56,544 bases of DNA from a virus. Its lineage: Duplodnaviria; Caudoviricetes. Where the stretch lies: positions 1 to 56,544 of the IMG/VR virus record IMGVR_UViG_3300050132_000119. One strand, 5' to 3'. Positions within the stretch are counted from its first letter, which is position 1. Every line of letters starts with the position of its first letter. Shown here in pieces: positions 2,054 to 12,619 of the stretch. The notes below the pieces were generated by a model. The model was not told the origin of the DNA, made no database searches, and worked only from the letters and a program-made list of their open reading frames with translations. A program made the translations under genes and the position numbers.

Positions 2054-4525
2054 CTACCCACCCACATACCCATGCACCGCAGGTGCTGGGTTCGGTGAAT
2101 CCCGGTATATGAAGTTCACCCGCCGCTGCTTGGCATTGATCACCCTCATCCGATGCTCTGCGAACCCATTAGCCAGAGCCGGATTGAGTGCCCACTGAGC
2201 CTGATGCTTGCTCTCCCCGGACTTGTCATCCAGACGCAAGACCCATTTGTCCCGCTCCAGCGGAATCATGGCTGAGTAGACCGCCTGATCCTGTTGCCAT
2301 ACCCCCAGCTTCCCGATTCTGTTACGAGCAGCATGTTTGAATGTTGGCAGATCCACAACCCCGTCATCACAGTGCTGAATGACCCACTCTGCCGCCCACT
2401 CATCAAATGATCCACCTTCAGCGCTATCCAGAGCGTACCTTAGTGCGGGAATCACGTAACCTTTGATGATCTCGCAAACCCGGTCCACGGTAGCCGCTGA
2501 TACCTGAGGATTGAATGGAGACTCCAGCATATGGAACATGAGCGACAGTCGGCCACACAACCCCTCCATCTTGCCGAACGCAGTCATGAACGTATCGTCG
2601 GACTGCAGCAACCTCTCATCATCCCGTTGCCTGAGATACCAGTCCTGGAACTGGTCATAAACCTTGAACGCTTCCGGCGTCATGGTGTAGGTCATGGCTG
2701 GCATCGCATAGATGATGCGGATCGTCTGTTCCCAGACGCCAGTATTCTGGAGGAACTCGGGAATCGGTTTGGGTTTGCGTGTCATGTCGCCATTGAGTAC
2801 ACAAGGTATGAACCGCTGAATCATGCCGTCAGCGCTCAGGGAGTGCAGATGCTCTTGAAACACTCGTGGCTGGATATTCCCGTAAATCGATACAGCCATG
2901 TTCTCGGCCCGGATGCTCCCTGAGCCCACACGGTCCATTTCATAGGGTGCTGACTCGTACGATTTGGTCCAGCAGGATCTGTCCTCACCGGACTGCTTAT
3001 CCGTCATCTTGCGAACCCATGAGTTCATCTCGTCTAGGGCGCACAGCAGACCACGAGGTCTGTCGGCGCACATCCTTGCCAGCTTCTGTGAGGTCACATC
3101 GTCCACGGTCAAGCGCAGAGGCACGGGCTGAGGGTCCAAGTCCGGGACAGAGGGAGCCTGACCCCCGAGCATAGCCTCTGGGGATGCTCGGAACTCAAGA
3201 AACGCTTTTTTTGACGATGCGTAAGCCGCCTCCTTTCCTTCCCAGTCCAGCAGATCCTTGGCGAACCGAATCCGATCCTCTTCCTCAATCAGGCGAAGCG
3301 GGGCGAACATGGGAGTGGACCCCGGAGTCTTTTTGTCGGCGGGTGCACCGATGGTCATGAGCCACAGGACCGGAGGAACCTTGAAGCCGGGGAGAATCTC
3401 AAGCCGGGACCGGGCATCTACGGCACCGCAGGCCGTAGCGAGTCCTGCGAATAAGGGGACCAGGGGGTCACAGCCTACAGTCTCACCAATTTCGGTGGCC
3501 CTGCGCGCCAGCACTGTGGGCCAGAGCGATATGTCCATCACTGGTGGCTTTGGGCGCATGTCATTCAGCATGGACTCCGGTGTCGCTGGGGCTGCGGTAC
3601 CCATTGCGGTAAAGAGTCCTGCTACGTCGATAGGGGGGCGAGTCCACCCATGTTCTTTGGCGATTTTGAACAGGGAGCCGAGTTTCACCCCAGTCGCTTT
3701 ATCCGGTTTAAACGAGTTCCATTGCGCCAATATCTCGCGCTCACCAGGAAACTTGGTTTCTGCGGTCTTGGACCATTGCATCCAGAGATGCAGGCCTTGT
3801 TCGAGATTGCTGATCTGGGTACTGGCCCAGTGGAGCGCCATTCCGCATACCACCCAGTCCTCACGGGAGCAGTCTGCTGGAATACTCTCAAGGGCAGACT
3901 CTATTTCACTCCAGTCTGCGGTCATGGCACCTGCGGGTGCCATGATGCTGGGTTCTGTGAGCATTCCTTGCCATAGATCAAGGAGAGCTTTGGGGATATG
4001 TGGTAACCGGGTCCAATGACCTTTCCCGGCCCACTGATATGGCTGCAGGGTTATCGGGTGGATCGATGGGGGCAGGACATCTTGTGTTGTCAGACCGTTA
4101 GAGGTGGCGCACCGTAGCTCATAAACAACAGTTCCGTCAATGGAAATTCGCTTGGATGGGAGCGGGGTATCAAGTTTGTAAAGCAGCTTGCCGTGTCCTG
4201 CCCTGCCCGAGTCCACGATAACGGCATCATTGGCGTCATAGAGCGCTTGGAGGTCAATACCCTGGAGTGCCAGCATCCCGACTGCTGTGGACCATGAATC
4301 TATATCAATTGCACAGGTTCCGCTATAAGCATGAGCCAAGCCAATGCCATATCCGTGAGGCAGATCGGACTGGCTCCTGAGTGCGTTTTCCTTGAGGTTC
4401 CAGCCAGCGGTGCGTGGACCTTTTGTTCCTTGGGGGATGGGGACTAATGAAAATCCGTGGCGGATATACGCATCGACTGATGCAGGGTGCTGTGCTACGT
4501 GGGTTACTTGGGAGACTGCGCTCAT
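2054..4525 (-). CDS. Primase-polymerase / PriCT-2 / DUF3987 helicase fusion
   Basis: SLVPIPQGTKGP..GW, AIDID, VLPPSIHP (Prim-Pol); W..CGMALH..W..WS (PriCT-2); LWLMTIGAP..KKT, DVT, DEM, DGMIQRF (DUF3987). Confidence 0.9.
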   Translation of the reverse strand: MSAVSQVTHVAQHPASVDAYIRHGFSLVPIPQGTKGPRTAGWNLKENALRSQSDLPHGYGIGLAHAYSGTCAIDIDSWSTAVGMLALQGIDLQALYDANDAVIVDSGRAGHGKLLYKLDTPLPSKRISIDGTVVYELRCATSNGLTTQDVLPPSIHPITLQPYQWAGKGHWTRLPHIPKALLDLWQGMLTEPSIMAPAGAMTADWSEIESALESIPADCSREDWVVCGMALHWASTQISNLEQGLHLWMQWSKTAETKFPGEREILAQWNSFKPDKATGVKLGSLFKIAKEHGWTRPPIDVAGLFTAMGTAAPATPESMLNDMRPKPPVMDISLWPTVLARRATEIGETVGCDPLVPLFAGLATACGAVDARSRLEILPGFKVPPVLWLMTIGAPADKKTPGSTPMFAPLRLIEEEDRIRFAKDLLDWEGKEAAYASSKKAFLEFRASPEAMLGGQAPSVPDLDPQPVPLRLTVDDVTSQKLARMCADRPRGLLCALDEMNSWVRKMTDKQSGEDRSCWTKSYESAPYEMDRVGSGSIRAENMAVSIYGNIQPRVFQEHLHSLSADGMIQRFIPCVLNGDMTRKPKPIPEFLQNTGVWEQTIRIIYAMPAMTYTMTPEAFKVYDQFQDWYLRQRDDERLLQSDDTFMTAFGKMEGLCGRLSLMFHMLESPFNPQVSAATVDRVCEIIKGYVIPALRYALDSAEGGSFDEWAAEWVIQHCDDGVVDLPTFKHAARNRIGKLGVWQQDQAVYSAMIPLERDKWVLRLDDKSGESKHQAQWALNPALANGFAEHRMRVINAKQRRVNFIYRDSPNPAPAVHGYVGG

Positions 4526-4673
4526 ACTGTTACACCACTATGTGCGCCAACCAACAGAAGTGCCATTGACTCAGGGGTCATACTTGAGACGGGCGTATGG
4601 GTGGTCATGCTGCTGCTCTCGCTTGGAGCCAGTCTATGGGAGTGGTCTGCTTTGACATTTCGCAACTTTCTAG

Positions 4674-4702
4674 AATTTATTTTTGTGGAACGATGTTGAC
4701 AA
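4674..4702 (-). promoter_or_regulatory. Leftward sigma70-like promoter for the primase
   Basis: TTGTCA-17 bp-TAAATT on the minus strand. Confidence 0.5.
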
Positions 4703-4725
4703 GTGTAAACGTCATCGGGTAGAAT
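4696..4725 (+). promoter_or_regulatory. Rightward sigma70-like promoter for the replication operon
   Basis: TTGACA-18 bp-TAGAAT. Confidence 0.65.
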
Positions 4726-4753
4726 CGCAACAACGAAATCGAGAAAGTTTGAA

Positions 4754-4951
4754 ATGAAGCGAAAACTCCTAACCGCCTTCCTCAGTGTTCGACTGACACC
4801 TGAGAGGCACACAGCGTTCTATCGCAAGGCTGATCAGTACGGGAGACCGTCTGACCTCTTGCGAGAACTGGTAGAAGCGTTCATCGATGACCGCCTGACC
4901 ATCAAACCTCCGTCAACCGTAAAGAAAGACCTATATGTCAATCTCAAATGA
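4754..4951 (+). CDS. Small ribbon-helix-helix-like DNA-binding protein
   Basis: LSVRLTPE...F..KA...SDLLRELVEAFI pattern; first gene after the promoter. Confidence 0.65.
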   Translation: MKRKLLTAFLSVRLTPERHTAFYRKADQYGRPSDLLRELVEAFIDDRLTIKPPSTVKKDLYVNLK

Positions 4952-5417
4952 AGCCATCATCGCAATCGCCACCGCTGTAACCGCTAATGCCACGGTCCTC
5001 CAGACCCTGGTTAACTCGCTTCCCCGTGAAGCTCAGGCCAAGGTTACTCACATCGCAATGGCACCAACAGCCATCCATATTACTCCAACCCCTGCTCCCG
5101 CGCCAGCACCAATCGCAACAGTTACACCTATCCAGGCTGCTGTAATCCCCGTAGCCGCTCCCGTGGCTCAGGTTGCTGCAATGCCCCCACCCCCCTCGTT
5201 CCAGGCTCCTGTAGCGGCTCCTGCTGCCACTGGCGCACCGTTTACTGATGCCAAGGGTCTGCTGGAATGGGTGATGAAAAGTTACAAAGAAATGGGATCT
5301 GAAAAGGGTGCTGGGATTCAGGGGGTTCTGGTGAGTCTCGGGTACAACAATATCAATGATGTAAATCCTATGCACTATGCGGCGCTGTATCAAGGCGTAG
5401 AATCCCTTAAAGGCTGA
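4935..5417 (+). CDS. Pro/Ala-linker protein of the replication module
   Basis: N-terminal helix, PAPA linker, small helical C-domain; precedes DUF2800. Confidence 0.7.
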   Translation: MSISNEAIIAIATAVTANATVLQTLVNSLPREAQAKVTHIAMAPTAIHITPTPAPAPAPIATVTPIQAAVIPVAAPVAQVAAMPPPPSFQAPVAAPAATGAPFTDAKGLLEWVMKSYKEMGSEKGAGIQGVLVSLGYNNINDVNPMHYAALYQGVESLKG

Positions 5418-7025: not shown

Positions 7026-7706
7026 ATGTATGAGTTGGCTCTTTTCGCGGGTGCTGGTGGTGGATTGCTTGGAACACAGCAACTCGGTTTCAAAACACTC
7101 TGTGCTGTGGAATTGGACTGGCACCGCCGATGTCTTCTTGCACAGCGACAAAATGAGCGACTCCTACGAGATTCATTCCCGATTTGGGATGACGTTCGTA
7201 CCTTTGACGGTAGAGCGTGGCGCGGCAGAGTTGATATGGTCTCTGGGGGATTTCCTTGCCAAGCGTTCAGCACAGCGGCAAGAGGGCGCAATACTGCCGA
7301 TGACCTTTGGGGGGAAATGCGAAGAGTCGTGGCAGATGTCTCTCCCCGGTACGTCTTCGCCGAAAACGTCAGCACCAAAGCCATTGAAGCCGCTGGGAAC
7401 GAACTGTCCTCGATGGGTTTCAAAGCCGAAATGCTTTCCCTATCTGCGTCAGACTTGGGCGCAGACCACATACGGGAACGGCATTGGCTACTTGCATACA
7501 CCGACGACAAAAGCCAATTACGCAGCCAAATCAATGCAAAAGTGGCCGAGTGCAAGGGCGTTTGTGGAAGTGTTTGGAGTGGTGAACCCGGAAAATCAGG
7601 AATGGCTGATGGGATTTCCACCCGGATGGAGCGATATGAAGCCACTGGAAACGGGCAAGTTCCAGTTGTGGCAGCAGCAGCTTTGTGGACACTTGCAAAC
7701 TCTTGA
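7026..7706 (+). CDS. DNA (cytosine-5) methyltransferase, alpha chain
   Basis: Motifs I FAGAGG, IV GGFPCQ, VI ENV, VIII RER, X GNG; no motif IX in this frame. Confidence 0.9.
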   Translation: MYELALFAGAGGGLLGTQQLGFKTLCAVELDWHRRCLLAQRQNERLLRDSFPIWDDVRTFDGRAWRGRVDMVSGGFPCQAFSTAARGRNTADDLWGEMRRVVADVSPRYVFAENVSTKAIEAAGNELSSMGFKAEMLSLSASDLGADHIRERHWLLAYTDDKSQLRSQINAKVAECKGVCGSVWSGEPGKSGMADGISTRMERYEATGNGQVPVVAAAALWTLANS

Positions 7707-7789: not shown

Positions 7790-8200
7790 CAGATCATAGG
7801 GAGACCTCTGGGTGGTCAAACAAAGTTGGGATATTTGCAATGCAGACTTAACGGGAATACCCATATGATGCACCGTCTTGCTTGGTTGTATGTTTATGGT
7901 CAATTTCCCTCCGATGAGATAGACCATATCAATGGAATTAGAACGGATAATAGAATCGGTAATCTTCGTGATACACCTCATAAACGAAATCAGGAAAATC
8001 AGAAACTGAATGTTCGTAATTCTAGTGGGTGTCGTGGGGCAACCTGGTGTCCTCATGCGAATAAGTGGAAGGCTTGTATATGCCATCATGAGAAGCGACA
8101 GCGCCTTGGTTATTTCACTTCAGTAGAGGAAGCAGCAGCCGCGGCAAAGGAGGCAAGAGACAGACTATTTACACACCATCACACATCAAACTCGTCGTAA
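7790..8200 (+). pseudogene. HNH (+AP2-like) endonuclease, N-terminally truncated
   Basis: GY...HRLAWLY..G...IDHING..DNRI.NLR; in-frame TGA at 7787-7789; no RBS-led ATG at the 5' end. Confidence 0.7.
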
Positions 8201-8226: not shown

Positions 8227-8892
8227 ATGGATATCATTTATTTCTCAAATGTCCGCCTCTCTTTTCCCCACCTCGTGACTCCCCAGGAGCAGGTGAATGA
8301 GTTGACCGGAGTCAAGCGCATCAGCTACAACGGTGAGTTGATCATGCCGCAGGACCATGCTGGGTTCACCCAGTTCATGGCGAAGTATGGTCAATTGGCC
8401 CTGACTGCATGGAAGGAGAACGCACCCGCTGTCATGCAAATGATTCTGCAGGATCGCAAGTCCCGCTGCTTCGGTCGTGGTGAGGAAAAGGTCAACAAAA
8501 AGACCTTCAAACCTTACGATGGGTATCCGGGCATGGTCTACGTCACCATCGGTCGGGACACACCACCACAGATGATCCAAGAGAACGGTCAAGCGATTGA
8601 TCCCAATAACTCCATGGCTTATCAGCAGCTTGCCCGCAAGATGTATGGTGGCTGTCGTGTCAATGCTGCCGTGAAGCCCTGGATTCAGCAGAACAAGCAT
8701 GGTAACGGAATTCGCTGTGACCTGATTGCTCTGCAGTTCGCAGGTGACGATACGGCCTTCGGTGAGGGTGCCACTGACGCATCGGACATGTTCGGTGCCG
8801 TGATCGGTTCAGCACCCAGCTTCATGCAGCCTGCCGCTGCTCCGATGCCTGCTGCACCGTTTGGGATGCCCTCGTTTCTGGGTGGTCATTAA
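8227..8892 (+). CDS. DUF2815-family ssDNA-binding protein
   Basis: NVRLSFPHL...YGGCRVNA...GIRCDLIALQF..D..FG; RBS aaggt. Confidence 0.85.
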   Translation: MDIIYFSNVRLSFPHLVTPQEQVNELTGVKRISYNGELIMPQDHAGFTQFMAKYGQLALTAWKENAPAVMQMILQDRKSRCFGRGEEKVNKKTFKPYDGYPGMVYVTIGRDTPPQMIQENGQAIDPNNSMAYQQLARKMYGGCRVNAAVKPWIQQNKHGNGIRCDLIALQFAGDDTAFGEGATDASDMFGAVIGSAPSFMQPAAAPMPAAPFGMPSFLGGH

Positions 8893-8905
8893 TTAGGTAG
8901 GTTTT

Positions 8906-8980
8906 GGGGTGCGGTTTCTGCACAGGGGCGTGGTTAGGTTCACGTTCCTGCGGGCTTTCTCCGAGTCAGAGCCGCACCTC
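8906..8980 (+). ncRNA. Candidate three-way-junction structured RNA
   Basis: Outer stem ggtgcggtttctg/cagagccgcacc; inner stems caggggcgtg/cacgttcctg and ggct/agtc with G-U pairs. Confidence 0.45.
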
Positions 8981-9002
8981 ATCTTTTCGTAAAAGGTAAC
9001 CT

Positions 9003-9368
9003 GTGATGAAAATTAAAACGAATCGTGTGGATAACAAGCTCGGCGATTTCCCACTTACACCTTCTCACACAATTGACGGGAAGCTATTATTCTCAGGTCG
9101 TACACTCTTTGAACTGAGATCGACACACGGGCTCCCTCTTGATTTTGCACTCTCTCGGGTAATTACTGGCCTAGGGATGGCGGTGGACTGGGTAGGATTC
9201 ATTGAGACTGCTAGGCGTAATAATTGGTGGGACTATCAGACCTACGAGGTGATATGTCACGGAATGGAAGATGCTGGGTTGCCGAAAGAGATGCAGAGTG
9301 CAATCCGCACAAGATTCCAAAAGTACGTTCTTCTTCATCAACACCCAAAGATGTCGGGTGCTGAATGA
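9003..9368 (+). CDS. Protein with alanyl-tRNA-synthetase-like helical motif
   Basis: SGRTLFELRSTHGLPLDF resembles the AlaRS G..AF.LYDTYGFP.DL motif. Confidence 0.6.
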   Translation: MMKIKTNRVDNKLGDFPLTPSHTIDGKLLFSGRTLFELRSTHGLPLDFALSRVITGLGMAVDWVGFIETARRNNWWDYQTYEVICHGMEDAGLPKEMQSAIRTRFQKYVLLHQHPKMSGAE

Positions 9369-10780
9369 GTAACGATTATGTGTTCGATTTAGAAACCTAC
9401 CCCAACGTATTCACCATGGCAGTGGAGCACTGTGATTACCCTCTCACCTGGGCATTTGAAATCTCCCCTTGGCGCAATGACTCCAGAGCCATTATTGACT
9501 TTGTGATGTGGCTCAAGAGTCAGGGCGCTCGGATGGTCTCCTTCAACGGCCTCGGATTCGATTATCCAATTCTCCACATGCTCATGAAGATGGGTAACGG
9601 CGATGCGCAGACCCTGTACGGCAAGGCCATGGCAATTATCAATTCACAGGATGACGATGATAAGTGGGCTCACTCTGTTAACCCGAGTGACCGAATCGTG
9701 ACTCAGCTAGATTTGTACAAGATCAGACATTTTGACAACAAGTCCCGCCGCACTGGACTCAAGAGTCTCGAATTCAATATGAGGATGGATAATATCCAGG
9801 ACTTACCGTTCAAGGTGGGCAGTTCACTGACTCAGGACCAGTTGCCTGTACTCAAGCAGTACAACGCACACGATGTCCGCGCAACCAAGGAGTTCTACTT
9901 CAAGAATCTGGACAAGATCAAATTCCGGGAAGAATTGACTCTGAAGTATCAGCGAGATTTTATGAATCACAACGATACCAAGATCGGCAAGGACTACTTC
10001 ATCATGAAGCTGGAGGAAGCCGGGATTCCCTGCTACGAGTTTGGTCCTATGGGTCGTACCCCTCGGCAAACCAAGCGCCCTCAGATTGCGTTGCGTGATG
10101 CGATTCTTCCCTGGATCAAATTTGAACAGCCCGAGTTCACCCGGATTCTGAACTGGTTCAAGGAACAGACCATCACTGAAACCAAGGGTGTCTTTGAGGA
10201 TATCGTTGCTCGGGTCAACGGATTTGATTTCGTATTCGGGCTCGGTGGTATCCATGGGTCTGTTGAGAACCAGATTCTGGTGTCGGATGACGAGTTCGTT
10301 ATTGTGGATATCGATGTGGCATCCATGTACCCGAATCTGGCAATTGCCAATGGGTTCTACCCTGAGCATCTGGGGCCGATGTTCGTCAATATCTACAAGC
10401 ACCTGTACGAACAGCGTAAGTCGTATGGAAAGAACACCGCAGAGAATGCGATGCTGAAGCTCTCATTGAATGGTGTTTACGGGGACAGCAATAACAGATT
10501 CAGTGTGTTCTTTGATCCGCTGTTCACCATGAAAATTACACTGAATGGGCAGCTTCAGATTTGCATGTTGGCAGAGAAGCTGATGCAGATTCATCAGTTG
10601 ACTCTGATCCAGTGCAACACAGATGGTGTGACCATGAGGGTTCCCAAGAATCTCAAGTACCGGGTATCTGAAGTCTGCGCTGAATGGGAGAAGCTGACCA
10701 AGTTGCAGCTTGAGGAAGCCATCTATTCAAGGATGTTTATACGGGATGTGAACAACTACATTGCGGAGTACATAGAATGA
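9365..10780 (+). CDS. Family B DNA polymerase, N-terminal fragment (exonuclease + palm/fingers)
   Basis: ExoI FDLE, ExoII FNG..FD, ExoIII YN.HDV; motifs DVASMYP, KLSLNGVYG, NTDG. Confidence 0.9.
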   Translation: MSNDYVFDLETYPNVFTMAVEHCDYPLTWAFEISPWRNDSRAIIDFVMWLKSQGARMVSFNGLGFDYPILHMLMKMGNGDAQTLYGKAMAIINSQDDDDKWAHSVNPSDRIVTQLDLYKIRHFDNKSRRTGLKSLEFNMRMDNIQDLPFKVGSSLTQDQLPVLKQYNAHDVRATKEFYFKNLDKIKFREELTLKYQRDFMNHNDTKIGKDYFIMKLEEAGIPCYEFGPMGRTPRQTKRPQIALRDAILPWIKFEQPEFTRILNWFKEQTITETKGVFEDIVARVNGFDFVFGLGGIHGSVENQILVSDDEFVIVDIDVASMYPNLAIANGFYPEHLGPMFVNIYKHLYEQRKSYGKNTAENAMLKLSLNGVYGDSNNRFSVFFDPLFTMKITLNGQLQICMLAEKLMQIHQLTLIQCNTDGVTMRVPKNLKYRVSEVCAEWEKLTKLQLEEAIYSRMFIRDVNNYIAEYIE

Positions 10781-11301
10781 AACCTCTGACTCAGGAGACG
10801 ATATGCAATGTGTTCAATTACGACCCTGCAACTGGTGAGTTCTGGAGAATTCTCACAGGTCATAATAAATCAAAAACAGGCACCATCTCAGTCAGACGCC
10901 AGATTCGTGCTGCTAGTCGAGGGTATCTTCAGGTTGGATTTTCTGGAAAAGTCTATTATGTTCATAGACTCGTTTGGGTGTGGATGACTGGTCAAATTCC
11001 TACGTTTATAGATCATATTGATGGAAATAAGAAGAATAATGAGTGGGCAAACCTACGACAAGTTCTGCGGGATGATAATTATCTGAATCTAGGTGTCGGC
11101 ACCCGGAATAATTCTGGTGTTACTGGTGTCTACTGGCACCCCGCTGTGAATAAATATGCAGTGCAGATAACTAAAAACGGTAAGCAGAAGTATCTAGGCT
11201 GCTTTGATAGTATCGAAGAGGCAACTGCTGTCAGAAAAGAAGCTGAGTCATTACTTGGTTTCCATCCTAATCACGGAGAACGACTATCATGGCGCGAGTG
11301 A
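10777..11301 (+). mobile_element. HNH-AP2 homing endonuclease inserted in the polymerase gene
   Basis: YDPATGEF, HRLVW, IDHIDGNKKNN..ANLR, SGVTGV..KYLG.F; AT-richer than flanks. Confidence 0.9.
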
Positions 11302-11714
11302 AAAGAAAAGGTGCGTATGAGTGGGATGTGGAATGGCATCAGAATCACTCAGCGCTCATTGTTCCAAAAGTAACTGAGATGGTATTACTCGATGGGGCAC
11401 CAATCAGAGAGACTGTGGAATCATGGACAGATATGTATGATTTCTTCATTCGTACCAAAGTACCCCGTTCCAGCTACCTCCAGTGGGGTGAGGCTCAGGC
11501 CCAAAACGTGTCCCGCTACTATGTGGCAAAGGGTGGCAAGCCTCTGTTCAAGCATATGCCGCCACTGGCGAAGAAGCCTAATGAGTGGCGCAAGTTTGCA
11601 GTAGAGAGTGGTTGGAATGTGCAGATTTGCAATGACATTCGGGATGCTACTTTGCCTGTGGATTTCGATTATTATGTGAATGAAATTGAAAAGCTCGTAT
11701 TAGGATTGTCATGA
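11289..11714 (+). CDS. Family B DNA polymerase, C-terminal (thumb) fragment
   Basis: VKRKGAYE...WHQNHS...RYYV...DFDYYVNEIEKL; own GGAG RBS. Confidence 0.85.
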   Translation: MARVKRKGAYEWDVEWHQNHSALIVPKVTEMVLLDGAPIRETVESWTDMYDFFIRTKVPRSSYLQWGEAQAQNVSRYYVAKGGKPLFKHMPPLAKKPNEWRKFAVESGWNVQICNDIRDATLPVDFDYYVNEIEKLVLGLS

Positions 11715-11872
11715 ATCTTGAAGAATTTTACGAATGGTTGAAAGACTCACTGCACTACTTCGGTCTACGCTGGTCCGATAAGCACTTGGTCGAAGTAAGC
11801 ATCAGCAAGGGACAAATTTGTCTGTCTTATGGTGGCATGGAAGTCAGAAGAACCACTCCGATGAAAGACTGA
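11711..11872 (+). CDS. 53-aa hypothetical protein
   Basis: MNLEEFYEWLKDSLHYFGL...; ATGA-coupled, fills the gap. Confidence 0.6.
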   Translation: MNLEEFYEWLKDSLHYFGLRWSDKHLVEVSISKGQICLSYGGMEVRRTTPMKD

Positions 11873-11873
11873 C

Positions 11874-12161
11874 ATGAATCAATCTGAATGTACTCGATAT
11901 AACAATCATCATCCTCAAATGAGTATTGATGAATGGCGGCGCAAGTATCTTAACGAGGGGTTTCCTCAAACCAACACCACCAAAACCGTAGCCATAGACC
12001 ACGATTACCACTGGCGCAAGATCGACCGAGACACTCCCTTGGGTGTCAAGGTCCAACTGATCAGCCGAGGGCGCTCAGGAGTCGCGTCATATGGCATCCT
12101 GGGTTCTGCGAATACTTGGTTCACTCACTGGGCTCCGTTGCCCACTTTTAAGAAAGACTGA
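11874..12161 (+). CDS. Hypothetical phage protein
   Basis: W..I...TP.G.KVQL...THWAPLP motif common in phage proteins. Confidence 0.7.
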   Translation: MNQSECTRYNNHHPQMSIDEWRRKYLNEGFPQTNTTKTVAIDHDYHWRKIDRDTPLGVKVQLISRGRSGVASYGILGSANTWFTHWAPLPTFKKD

Positions 12162-12163
12162 TT

Positions 12164-12619
12164 ATGGGAACAAAACCTGAGTGCTTTGGGCAAAGAAAGC
12201 CATACATCGTAGAGATATGCAGAACATGTTCGTTCCGAGAGGATTGTGGTGTAGCGGATTGCGGCCCCTCGGCATCAAAATTGAATGAAGTGGCGAAGGA
12301 GACTCTTCGCGCTATTTCAGAGCGGCGCATGAACGAACGAGATGAGATATGTGTTGCTATGATGAATAGCGCATTCGAACCCAATTACACCAAAGCCAGC
12401 ACCCGCCAAGTCGGAGGAACCCATTACAAGGATATGGGTATCCAGACCTGGGATGTTGTGGATACGTGGCCCCGAGAACAACGCATCGGGTATTACCGTG
12501 GCGGGGCTCTCAAGTACCTCATGCGCATGGGGTCAAAGGATGAGAATGCTCAGGAGATTGCCAAGGGGCAGCACTACCTTGAGAAACTTTTGGAAGTTCT
12601 AACGGAGATATCGAAATGA
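12164..12619 (+). CDS. DUF3310 (SaV-like) protein
   Basis: QVGGTHYK...Q.WD...KYL.R.G.K...KG.HYLEKL. Confidence 0.8.
   Translation: MGTKPECFGQRKPYIVEICRTCSFREDCGVADCGPSASKLNEVAKETLRAISERRMNERDEICVAMMNSAFEPNYTKASTRQVGGTHYKDMGIQTWDVVDTWPREQRIGYYRGGALKYLMRMGSKDENAQEIAKGQHYLEKLLEVLTEISK

Follow-up and report, generated by a model that had tools for sequence, protein, structure and literature searches.

Organisation of the locus

The DNA analysed here, which we call the window, is the complete IMG/VR record IMGVR_UViG_3300050132_000119, a Caudoviricetes genome of 56,544 bp that IMG/VR classes as linear and CheckV scores as 100% complete. It carries a gene for a family-B DNA polymerase (PolB) that appears to have been broken in two by the insertion of an HNH-class homing endonuclease gene, and we argue below that the two products, Pol-N and Pol-C, very probably still work as one enzyme.

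Pol-N, the HNH gene and Pol-C are consecutive open reading frames (ORFs) on the + strand, each in its own frame (Table 1). The ATG of the HNH gene (10777-10779) overlaps the TGA of Pol-N (10778-10780) as ATGA, and the HNH stop codon (11299-11301) is located 13 nucleotides (nt) into Pol-C, the last 13 nt of the HNH gene overlapping the Pol-C start. A preliminary description, made from the letters of this DNA alone, had given this three-ORF layout, with the ATGA overlap and a Pol-C start at 11289 served by a GGAG, and it is exact to the base. Both polymerase halves are ORFs with their own translation signals, a feature of endonuclease-fragmented enzymes of the NrdA-a/NrdA-b and gp43A/gp43B type.

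The closest intact alleles, two IMG/VR loci (L005 and L006; loci are designated by L numbers), are 86% identical to Pol-N and 78% identical to Pol-C. In a pairwise DNA alignment, the homology to these alleles ends at about 10764 and resumes at about 11298, and about 533 nt stand in place of the 19 nt that encode ...(A)VYEDSH... in L005/L006. The insert contains 0 non-coding bases, the HNH ORF spanning it end to end. It contributes only the residues I-E and the stop at the end of Pol-N, and M-A-R at the start of Pol-C.

Table 1. Features of the split polymerase locus and its neighbours, in window coordinates
Feature	Positions	Strand	Description
Pol-N	9365..10780	+	ORF, 471 amino acids, C-terminal end ...RDVNNYIAEYIE*; N-terminal part of a small PolB, with 3'-5' exonuclease, palm (motifs A, C) and fingers (motif B)
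HNH ORF	10777..11301	+	174 amino acids, between Pol-N and Pol-C
Pol-C	11289..11714	+	ORF, 141 amino acids, N-terminal start MARVKRKGAYEW; KRKG(x)Y strand and thumb
Insert, by comparison with the closest intact allele (L005/L006)	10765..11297	+	from the pairwise DNA alignment and the junctions of 77 intact IMG/VR loci
GGAG Shine-Dalgarno-like site for the HNH gene	10765..10768	+	8 nt 5' of the HNH ATG; within the Pol-N coding sequence (GCGGAGTAC)
Ribosome-binding site (GGAG) of Pol-C	11275..11278	+	10 nt 5' of the Pol-C ATG; within the HNH coding sequence
C5 DNA methyltransferase	7026..7706		flanks the second HNH_3 gene
Second HNH_3 gene	7826..8200	+	124 amino acids, AP2-like domain
Gp2.5/Enc34-type single-stranded DNA-binding protein	8227..8892		flanks the second HNH_3 gene
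ORF without assigned function	9003..9368	+	121 amino acids; overlaps the first 4 nt of Pol-N

Overlap of the stop and start codons, and an insert free of terminator-like sites, suggest that the locus is read as a single transcript whose genes are translated in a coupled manner. A scan of positions 8800-12300 counted 9 promoter-like sites (5.2 +/- 2.4 expected) and 1 terminator-like site (2.7 +/- 1.8 expected), and on the + strand of the insert it found none except a 9/12 match at 10749-10778, which gives a separate transcript no basis.

Two halves of one small family-B polymerase

Both halves match a single DNA polymerase profile of 663 positions, phrog_1252, far beyond chance: Pol-N covers positions 50-508 (52-507 in the match at E 2.8e-155) and Pol-C positions 512-649 (512-648 in the match at 5.8e-26), with only about 3 profile positions absent between them. 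The uninterrupted PolB of DSL-LC05 (618 amino acids) is 68.5% identical to Pol-N over its residues 1-469 and 66% identical to Pol-C at its C-terminus. Intact relatives, 610-618 amino acids long overall, continue across the site when aligned, and Pol-C is homologous to intact C-termini, as the split proposed in the preliminary description would demand. A megablast of 9365-11714 against phages gave no match.

Assignment to family B was less direct. Pfam gave only DNA_pol_B_exo2, below its cut-off (E 0.0022), and the best match to the PDB by sequence profile was weak (E 0.058), hence the need for a fold search. A profile of 33 Pol-N sequences aligned motifs A, B and C weakly to KOD polymerase and E. 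coli Pol II (E 0.06-0.1). In these 33 sequences the invariant columns include, in window numbering, D8 and E10; D317, S320, Y322 and P323; K365, N369, G370 and G373; and N418, T419, D420 and G421. We take the motifs present to be the exonuclease motifs and motif A (DxxSxYP), motif B (KxxxNxxYG) and motif C (xTDx) of family B. The fold was modelled with AlphaFold2 on the intact relative L006 (610 amino acids) in place of the window's own protein, with a predicted local distance difference test (pLDDT) score of 87.2 and a predicted template modelling (pTM) score of 0.81. Foldseek matched this model to at least 367 PDB chains at E <= 0.001, with family-B polymerases of archaea and eukaryotes, archaeal PolB and Pol alpha, on top (probability 1.00, E ~1e-15, template modelling scores 0.4-0.55). 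On the evidence of this modelled fold, we regard the identity as a small family-B polymerase as settled.

The upstream ORF of 121 amino acids had no PHROG match at 1e-8 and a Pfam match at chance level only. The equivalent position in DSL-LC05 is occupied by about 100 nt without an annotated gene.

Position of the break

In intact enzymes the chain runs across the site as ...RDVNNYIAVYE-DSH-VKRKGAYEW.... Among the best 80 Pol-C loci of IMG/VR, one is cut by a contig end; 77 of the 79 assessable loci continue across the site (for example NNYIAVYEDSHVKRKG) and two are split (L055 and L009). The L006 model has beta strands at 463-468 and 473-476, joined by a turn of four residues in which the break is located; the last palm strand and then the KRKG strand, which leads into the thumb, make up this beta-hairpin. 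Motifs A, B and C are all retained in Pol-N; Pol-C starts with the KRKG(x)Y strand and contains the rest of the C-terminus. We take this C-terminus to be the thumb, the domain names following general PolB anatomy and the linear correspondence of the motif alignment. That the break comes after motif C and detaches the thumb had been proposed from the letters alone, and the motif alignment, the L006 model and the complex model described below agree in placing it before the KRKG(x)Y strand. The models thus locate the fission point in the hairpin turn at the palm/thumb boundary.

The inserted gene

The HNH ORF matches Pfam HNH_3 above cut-off (9.2e-13) and phrog_99, 'HNH endonuclease' (4.1e-55), and it also resembles Pfam AP2 below cut-off (1.7e-4; 22.2 bits against 33.3). 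The D-H...N...N-L-R...N catalytic motif is invariant in 16/16 in-polymerase HNH homologues, all 16 of which are intact ORFs with a median pairwise identity of 41%. Free-standing homologues outside the polymerase have the same length as the 174-amino-acid ORF. The gene is an ORF of its own, outside any intron or intein, and on the Pol-N tree described below it is present at a conserved target site in some close relatives and absent from it in others. From its sequence it is a predicted free-standing homing endonuclease gene of the HNH class.

Co-conversion of the flanks was assessed as third-codon identity at identical residues, comparing the 20 codons proximal to the junction with the distal ones. 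On the Pol-C side the values were 0.463 vs 0.480 for HNH-bearing pairs and 0.634 vs 0.593 for intact pairs; on the Pol-N side, 0.515 vs 0.423 and 0.581 vs 0.560, respectively. Any excess is weak at most and confined to Pol-N, the pairs being non-independent.

The second HNH_3 gene of the window is 38% identical to the in-polymerase gene over 99 residues, is devoid of its N-terminal part of about 48 amino acids, and appears to split no gene. Elsewhere, L118 has a GIY-YIG gene within the polymerase and an HNH homologue, 37% identical to that of the window, just upstream of Pol-N (L118:4138-4644); the HNH family therefore also occupies other sites in related genomes. In Vibrio phage D478 the HNH homologue is found among head genes and not in a polymerase.

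Unlikely alternatives: rejoining of the halves and assembly errors

Could the two halves be rejoined, by a group I or II intron, by an intein or split inteins, or by ribosomal bypassing or frameshifting? Group I introns with HNH ORFs are often found in phage polymerase genes, for example I-PfoP3I (PMC3428280; see also references in PMC10580990). Here, by contrast, a search of 9000-12500 against Rfam, with E values up to 10 allowed, returned a single snoRNA match, on the minus strand and at chance level, and no group I intron core, and the 533-nt insert is filled by an ORF as long as its free-standing homologues. The preliminary description had argued that no room is left for a group I intron and that stops and frame changes exclude an intein. 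The wholly coding insert and the Rfam scan bear out the first point; the three frames with their stops and the absence of any Hint or intein domain in Pfam bear out the second. Moreover, the extra residues, 2 on Pol-N and 3 on Pol-C, are too few for split-intein halves, and no case is known to us in which ribosomes bypass about 520 nt that hold a translated ORF. We consider any such rejoining very unlikely.

The record is a metagenome-assembled virus, so an assembly artefact, or a chimera of two phages, must also be weighed. A 2487-nt contig covers 10300-11800 with two differences; it comes from sequencing run X2, which belongs to a different study but may itself be where this DNA originated. 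Short DNA contigs of run X4, also from another study, bridge both junctions, and a stand-alone Pol-C on another contig (P0005) is 99% identical. The same architecture with the 13-nt overlap is found in 17/28 split loci examined, and in isolate genomes. Misassembly, the possibility raised at the outset, is not indicated, and we give it practically no weight. One DNA contig of X4, a peat metagenome, joins 10718 to 11310 and skips 591 nt, with a side of 42 matched at 90% likeness. It may represent an endonuclease-free allele of a relative, and is too weak to claim as such.

Recurrence of the split at the same point

The two split loci of the IMG/VR set carry different genes in the gap. The HNH gene of L055 is 39% identical to that of the window, and its locus also presents the ATGA and 13-nt overlaps, while the gap of L009 contains a GIY-YIG gene (Pfam 2.7e-7). 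A search of IMG/VR with the DNA pattern of the 3' junction found only the L055 contig.

In metagenomes, a scan for an ATG three codons before KRKG...WHQ, which is biased to split alleles because its pattern demands that ATG, gave 26/26 loci split at one same point. The inserts comprise 15 HNH genes, 5 GIY-YIG genes, 1 DNA methylase and 2 radical-SAM-like ORFs, and 3 loci have too little upstream sequence. The 15 HNH homologues before Pol-C show 35-46% identity (the L129 contig carries the HNH 3' end only). The GCGGAGTA motif at the 5' junction is also present in L055, L113, L116, L127, L130, L131 and L134, and the 3' junction CACGGAG-N10-ATGGCG is conserved also in L055, L116, L121, L127 and L132; the ATGA overlap is found in 10 loci.

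Two of the inserts deserve description. In L125 (1315-3911) a DNA methylase (N6_N4_Mtase, 7e-33), whose start makes a GTGA overlap at the 5' junction, lies between a Pol-N of 465 and a Pol-C of 145 amino acids. L115 (384-1373, minus strand) and L126 have, in the polymerase gap, an ORF of 330 amino acids with a CxxxCxxC motif and a weak, below-cut-off match to Radical_SAM (E 0.001); the inserts of the two contigs are identical.

A collection of 5.8 billion proteins yielded 224 matches of 77-247 amino acids to Pol-C. Among the 120 short clusters listed, 65 begin at the break point, with KRKG after M and 1-4 further residues, so that there are at least 65 stand-alone Pol-C protein clusters among the matches listed; 47 carry a Pol-N tail and are fragments of intact genes, and the remaining 8 fall into neither class (6 without the KRKG motif, 2 with a short extension only).

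The same split is present in the four cultured phages that we checked, and is unremarked in their GenBank records: Yersinia fEV-1 and Klebsiella KpTRp1, with GIY-YIG inserts, and Edwardsiella PVN06 and Klebsiella RCIP0030, with HNH inserts. Among Klebsiella phages we inspected RCIP0030 and KpTRp1, four similar matches and KpTDp1 standing outside the count. In fEV-1 (L001, LT992259) the annotated start of g47c (4423-5091) is 31 codons too far downstream, and when read from the upstream ATG the gene is a complete GIY-YIG endonuclease (Pfam 1.3e-4 for the longer reading). The 'hypothetical' g46c of the same phage is the C-terminal half of the polymerase, and the fEV-1 paper names Gp48c alone as polymerase (PMC8309999). 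In PVN06 (L135) and RCIP0030 (L136) both halves and the endonuclease are all annotated 'hypothetical protein', and in KpTRp1 (L138) it is the C-terminal half alone that is named DNA polymerase.

A Pol-N tree of 78 rows (quick IQ-TREE, LG+G4; 64 intact, 9 HNH, 4 GIY-YIG, 1 other) requires at least 6 changes between the split and intact states, on a sampling that is uneven, the intact rows coming from a similarity-ranked list and the split rows from the pattern scan; the tree does not separate gain from loss. The window is sister to the intact L005/L006 (support 98), and L055 (99), L131 (100) and L009 (100) are likewise each sister to an intact allele. L125, which carries the methylase, is placed in a 100-supported clade with two HNH-bearing loci, and this placement fits a replacement of the endonuclease while the split stayed.

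In these sequences the palm/thumb boundary is a recurrent insertion hot spot: one codon gap holds genes of at least two unrelated endonuclease families, and non-endonuclease cargo as well.

Evidence for a two-subunit enzyme

The window retains 206/212 of the columns that are invariant in 28 intact enzymes (158/163 in Pol-N and 48/49 in Pol-C). The end branch of its Pol-N (0.081) does not exceed that of the intact sister (0.11) in length. Furthermore, a complex model of Pol-N with Pol-C reached an interface score (ipSAE) of 0.85 (runs 0.85, 0.80 and 0.87), a mark attained by 58/80 solved complexes and 2/110 mismatched pairs, whereas the best control scored 0.00; the runs agreed in no fewer than 88% of contacts, and the partner pLDDT was 88 or more. 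In this model, residues 463-471 of Pol-N and 2-10 of Pol-C form an antiparallel pair, and Pol-C has a further contact with Pol-N 121-151. In the genome we found no PolA match and no second phrog_1252 copy or second PolB (one of the scans covering 36 of the 62 ORFs of at least 90 amino acids).

Several points weigh against a reassembled enzyme. The event in the window looks recent, because the sister alleles L005/L006 are intact; the residue retention could reflect this recent insertion, so that high retention alone is no proof of selection after the split. Unselected close relatives are mostly intact, with 2/79 split, and the 26/26 of the metagenome scan gives no frequency, that scan being designed to find split loci. 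The calibration counts for the ipSAE mark hold only roughly for our complex, since its model used our own alignments. The complex model may also score well through the familiarity of such modelling with single-chain family-B polymerases; as halves of a known fold can pass in this way, it shows a fit of the halves like that in a single-chain PolB, and not binding. Finally, the only RNA-library contig (run X13, 151 nt) covers 11337-11454 alone and says nothing on transcription or splicing.

The alternative is an insertion that killed the gene, with Pol-N and Pol-C as decaying remnants, or with Pol-N working alone, and the host polymerase replicating the phage. The recent event and the low proportion of split relatives would fit such a history. 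However, split loci at 43-69% Pol-N identity to the window still have both halves open. Every complete Pol-C is open, and Pol-C halves 60-74% identical to that of the window keep 33 invariant positions. The split persists in L125, where a DNA methylase stands in place of the endonuclease, and is borne by four cultured lytic phages. Moreover, the conserved ribosome-binding site and ATG of Pol-C would be purposeless if Pol-C were dead. We judge a dead gene to be improbable.

The comparative evidence and the complex model together make it highly likely, in our view, that the phage's only DNA polymerase is a non-covalent two-subunit PolB made by the insertion of a free-standing homing endonuclease gene. 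A heterodimeric PolB was also the reading preferred in the preliminary description, and these two lines of evidence support it.

Relation to known systems

Endonuclease-split genes and split PolBs are both established, and no new category is created here. In the T4-related Aeromonas phages 25 and 44RR, gene 43 is split into gp43A and gp43B, whose products co-purify and are active (PMC2988022). As in phage 25, the PolB gene of the window forms two cistrons with a free-standing homing endonuclease gene (seg-type in phage 25) between them. However, those enzymes belong to the large T4-type gp43 lineage, whereas the present one is a PolB of about 610 amino acids from the phrog_1252 group; and the spacer of 44RR is untranslated, whereas here the HNH ORF overlaps both halves and appears to give the translation signals. 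In phage Aeh1, nrdA is split by the HNH-type mobE, and NrdA-a and NrdA-b function by non-covalent assembly without splicing (PMC3045599). There too a free-standing HNH-type gene fragments an essential gene of nucleotide metabolism, but the insertion-derived tails of Aeh1 are essential for activity, whereas here only I-E and M-A-R are added and the modelled interface consists of the native hairpin and thumb contacts. The chimallivirus PhiKZ likewise has a family-B polymerase from two genes, DNAP-N and DNAP-C forming a stable 1:1 complex seen by cryo-electron microscopy (preprint PMC13648687). Its break, unlike ours, lies within a palm insertion that separates motif A, in the N subunit, from motif C, in the C subunit; here both motifs lie in Pol-N. 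The PhiKZ genes, gp82 and gp50, are far apart with no endonuclease gene, whereas here the two genes are adjacent, around the mobile gene.

HNH genes within group I introns, such as I-PfoP3I of Pf-WMP3 and those of SPO1-type phages, also interrupt a polymerase gene at a conserved site; in those cases RNA splicing removes the insert, whereas the present insert has no ribozyme core and no non-coding DNA. 'Fractured genes' resemble our locus in having a homing endonuclease gene between the two halves of a broken gene, with split-intein halves on the products (PMC2677866); here trans-splicing is excluded because the termini carry only 2-3 extra residues. A polymerase of Vequintavirinae may have been split by HNH genes (review PMC8472413), and OM43 phages have a split family-A polymerase (PMC10580990). 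A split polymerase is not described in the Rheinheimera phage paper (PMC6715854) or the CB5 paper (PMC6115819), and we found no description of a split for a phrog_1252-group polymerase in the literature, supplementary files being outside the search. New here are the exact fission point, the translation signals from the mobile gene, the shared codon gap and the unannotated split in cultured phages.

How the split may have arisen and what it may mean

The following course of events would account for the locus. A free-standing HNH_3 (AP2-like) gene would have inserted into the polymerase gene, in the hairpin turn at the palm/thumb boundary. The insert would have brought the stop of Pol-N, in the ATGA overlap, and, in its own 3' end, the GGAG and ATG of Pol-C, so that the mobile gene appears from the sequence to supply translation signals for both of its neighbours. 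One transcript would then give three proteins by coupled translation and, as far as the sequence can show, no splicing would occur at the RNA or the protein level. Pol-N and Pol-C would reassemble non-covalently, re-forming the hairpin between chains, into a two-subunit replicase, as conservation and the model suggest. The endonuclease, judging from its family and the presence/absence pattern, presumably cuts intact alleles in relatives that infect the same cell and spreads when the cut is mended by recombination.

The window would represent a third lineage, independent of the other two, with a naturally split family-B replicase. In this one the cause of the split is still visible, and it would pin one hairpin turn as a place where a replicative polymerase tolerates fission. 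More immediately, the C-terminal halves that stand as 'hypothetical protein' in fEV-1, PVN06, RCIP0030 and similar matches, as well as that of KpTRp1, could be re-annotated. Cultured Klebsiella and Edwardsiella phages, which offer HNH-bearing and GIY-YIG-bearing alleles of one site, make a tractable system that could be used to study the competition of endonucleases for a target and the survival of fragmented essential enzymes.

A broader proposal, which we advance tentatively and hold at slightly less than even, is that the palm/thumb hairpin turn of this small PolB clade serves as a general landing pad and by nature permits fission, the two-subunit form outliving the endonuclease and the gap collecting ordinary cargo. 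If so, the unrelated families HNH_3/AP2-like and GIY-YIG/NUMOD would have colonised the same codon gap, to be followed by cargo such as the DNA methylase of L125 and the radical-SAM-like ORF of L115/L126. The detachable thumb subunit would then be an evolved and lasting form of replicative polymerase in several cultured phage genera, and not a transient scar.

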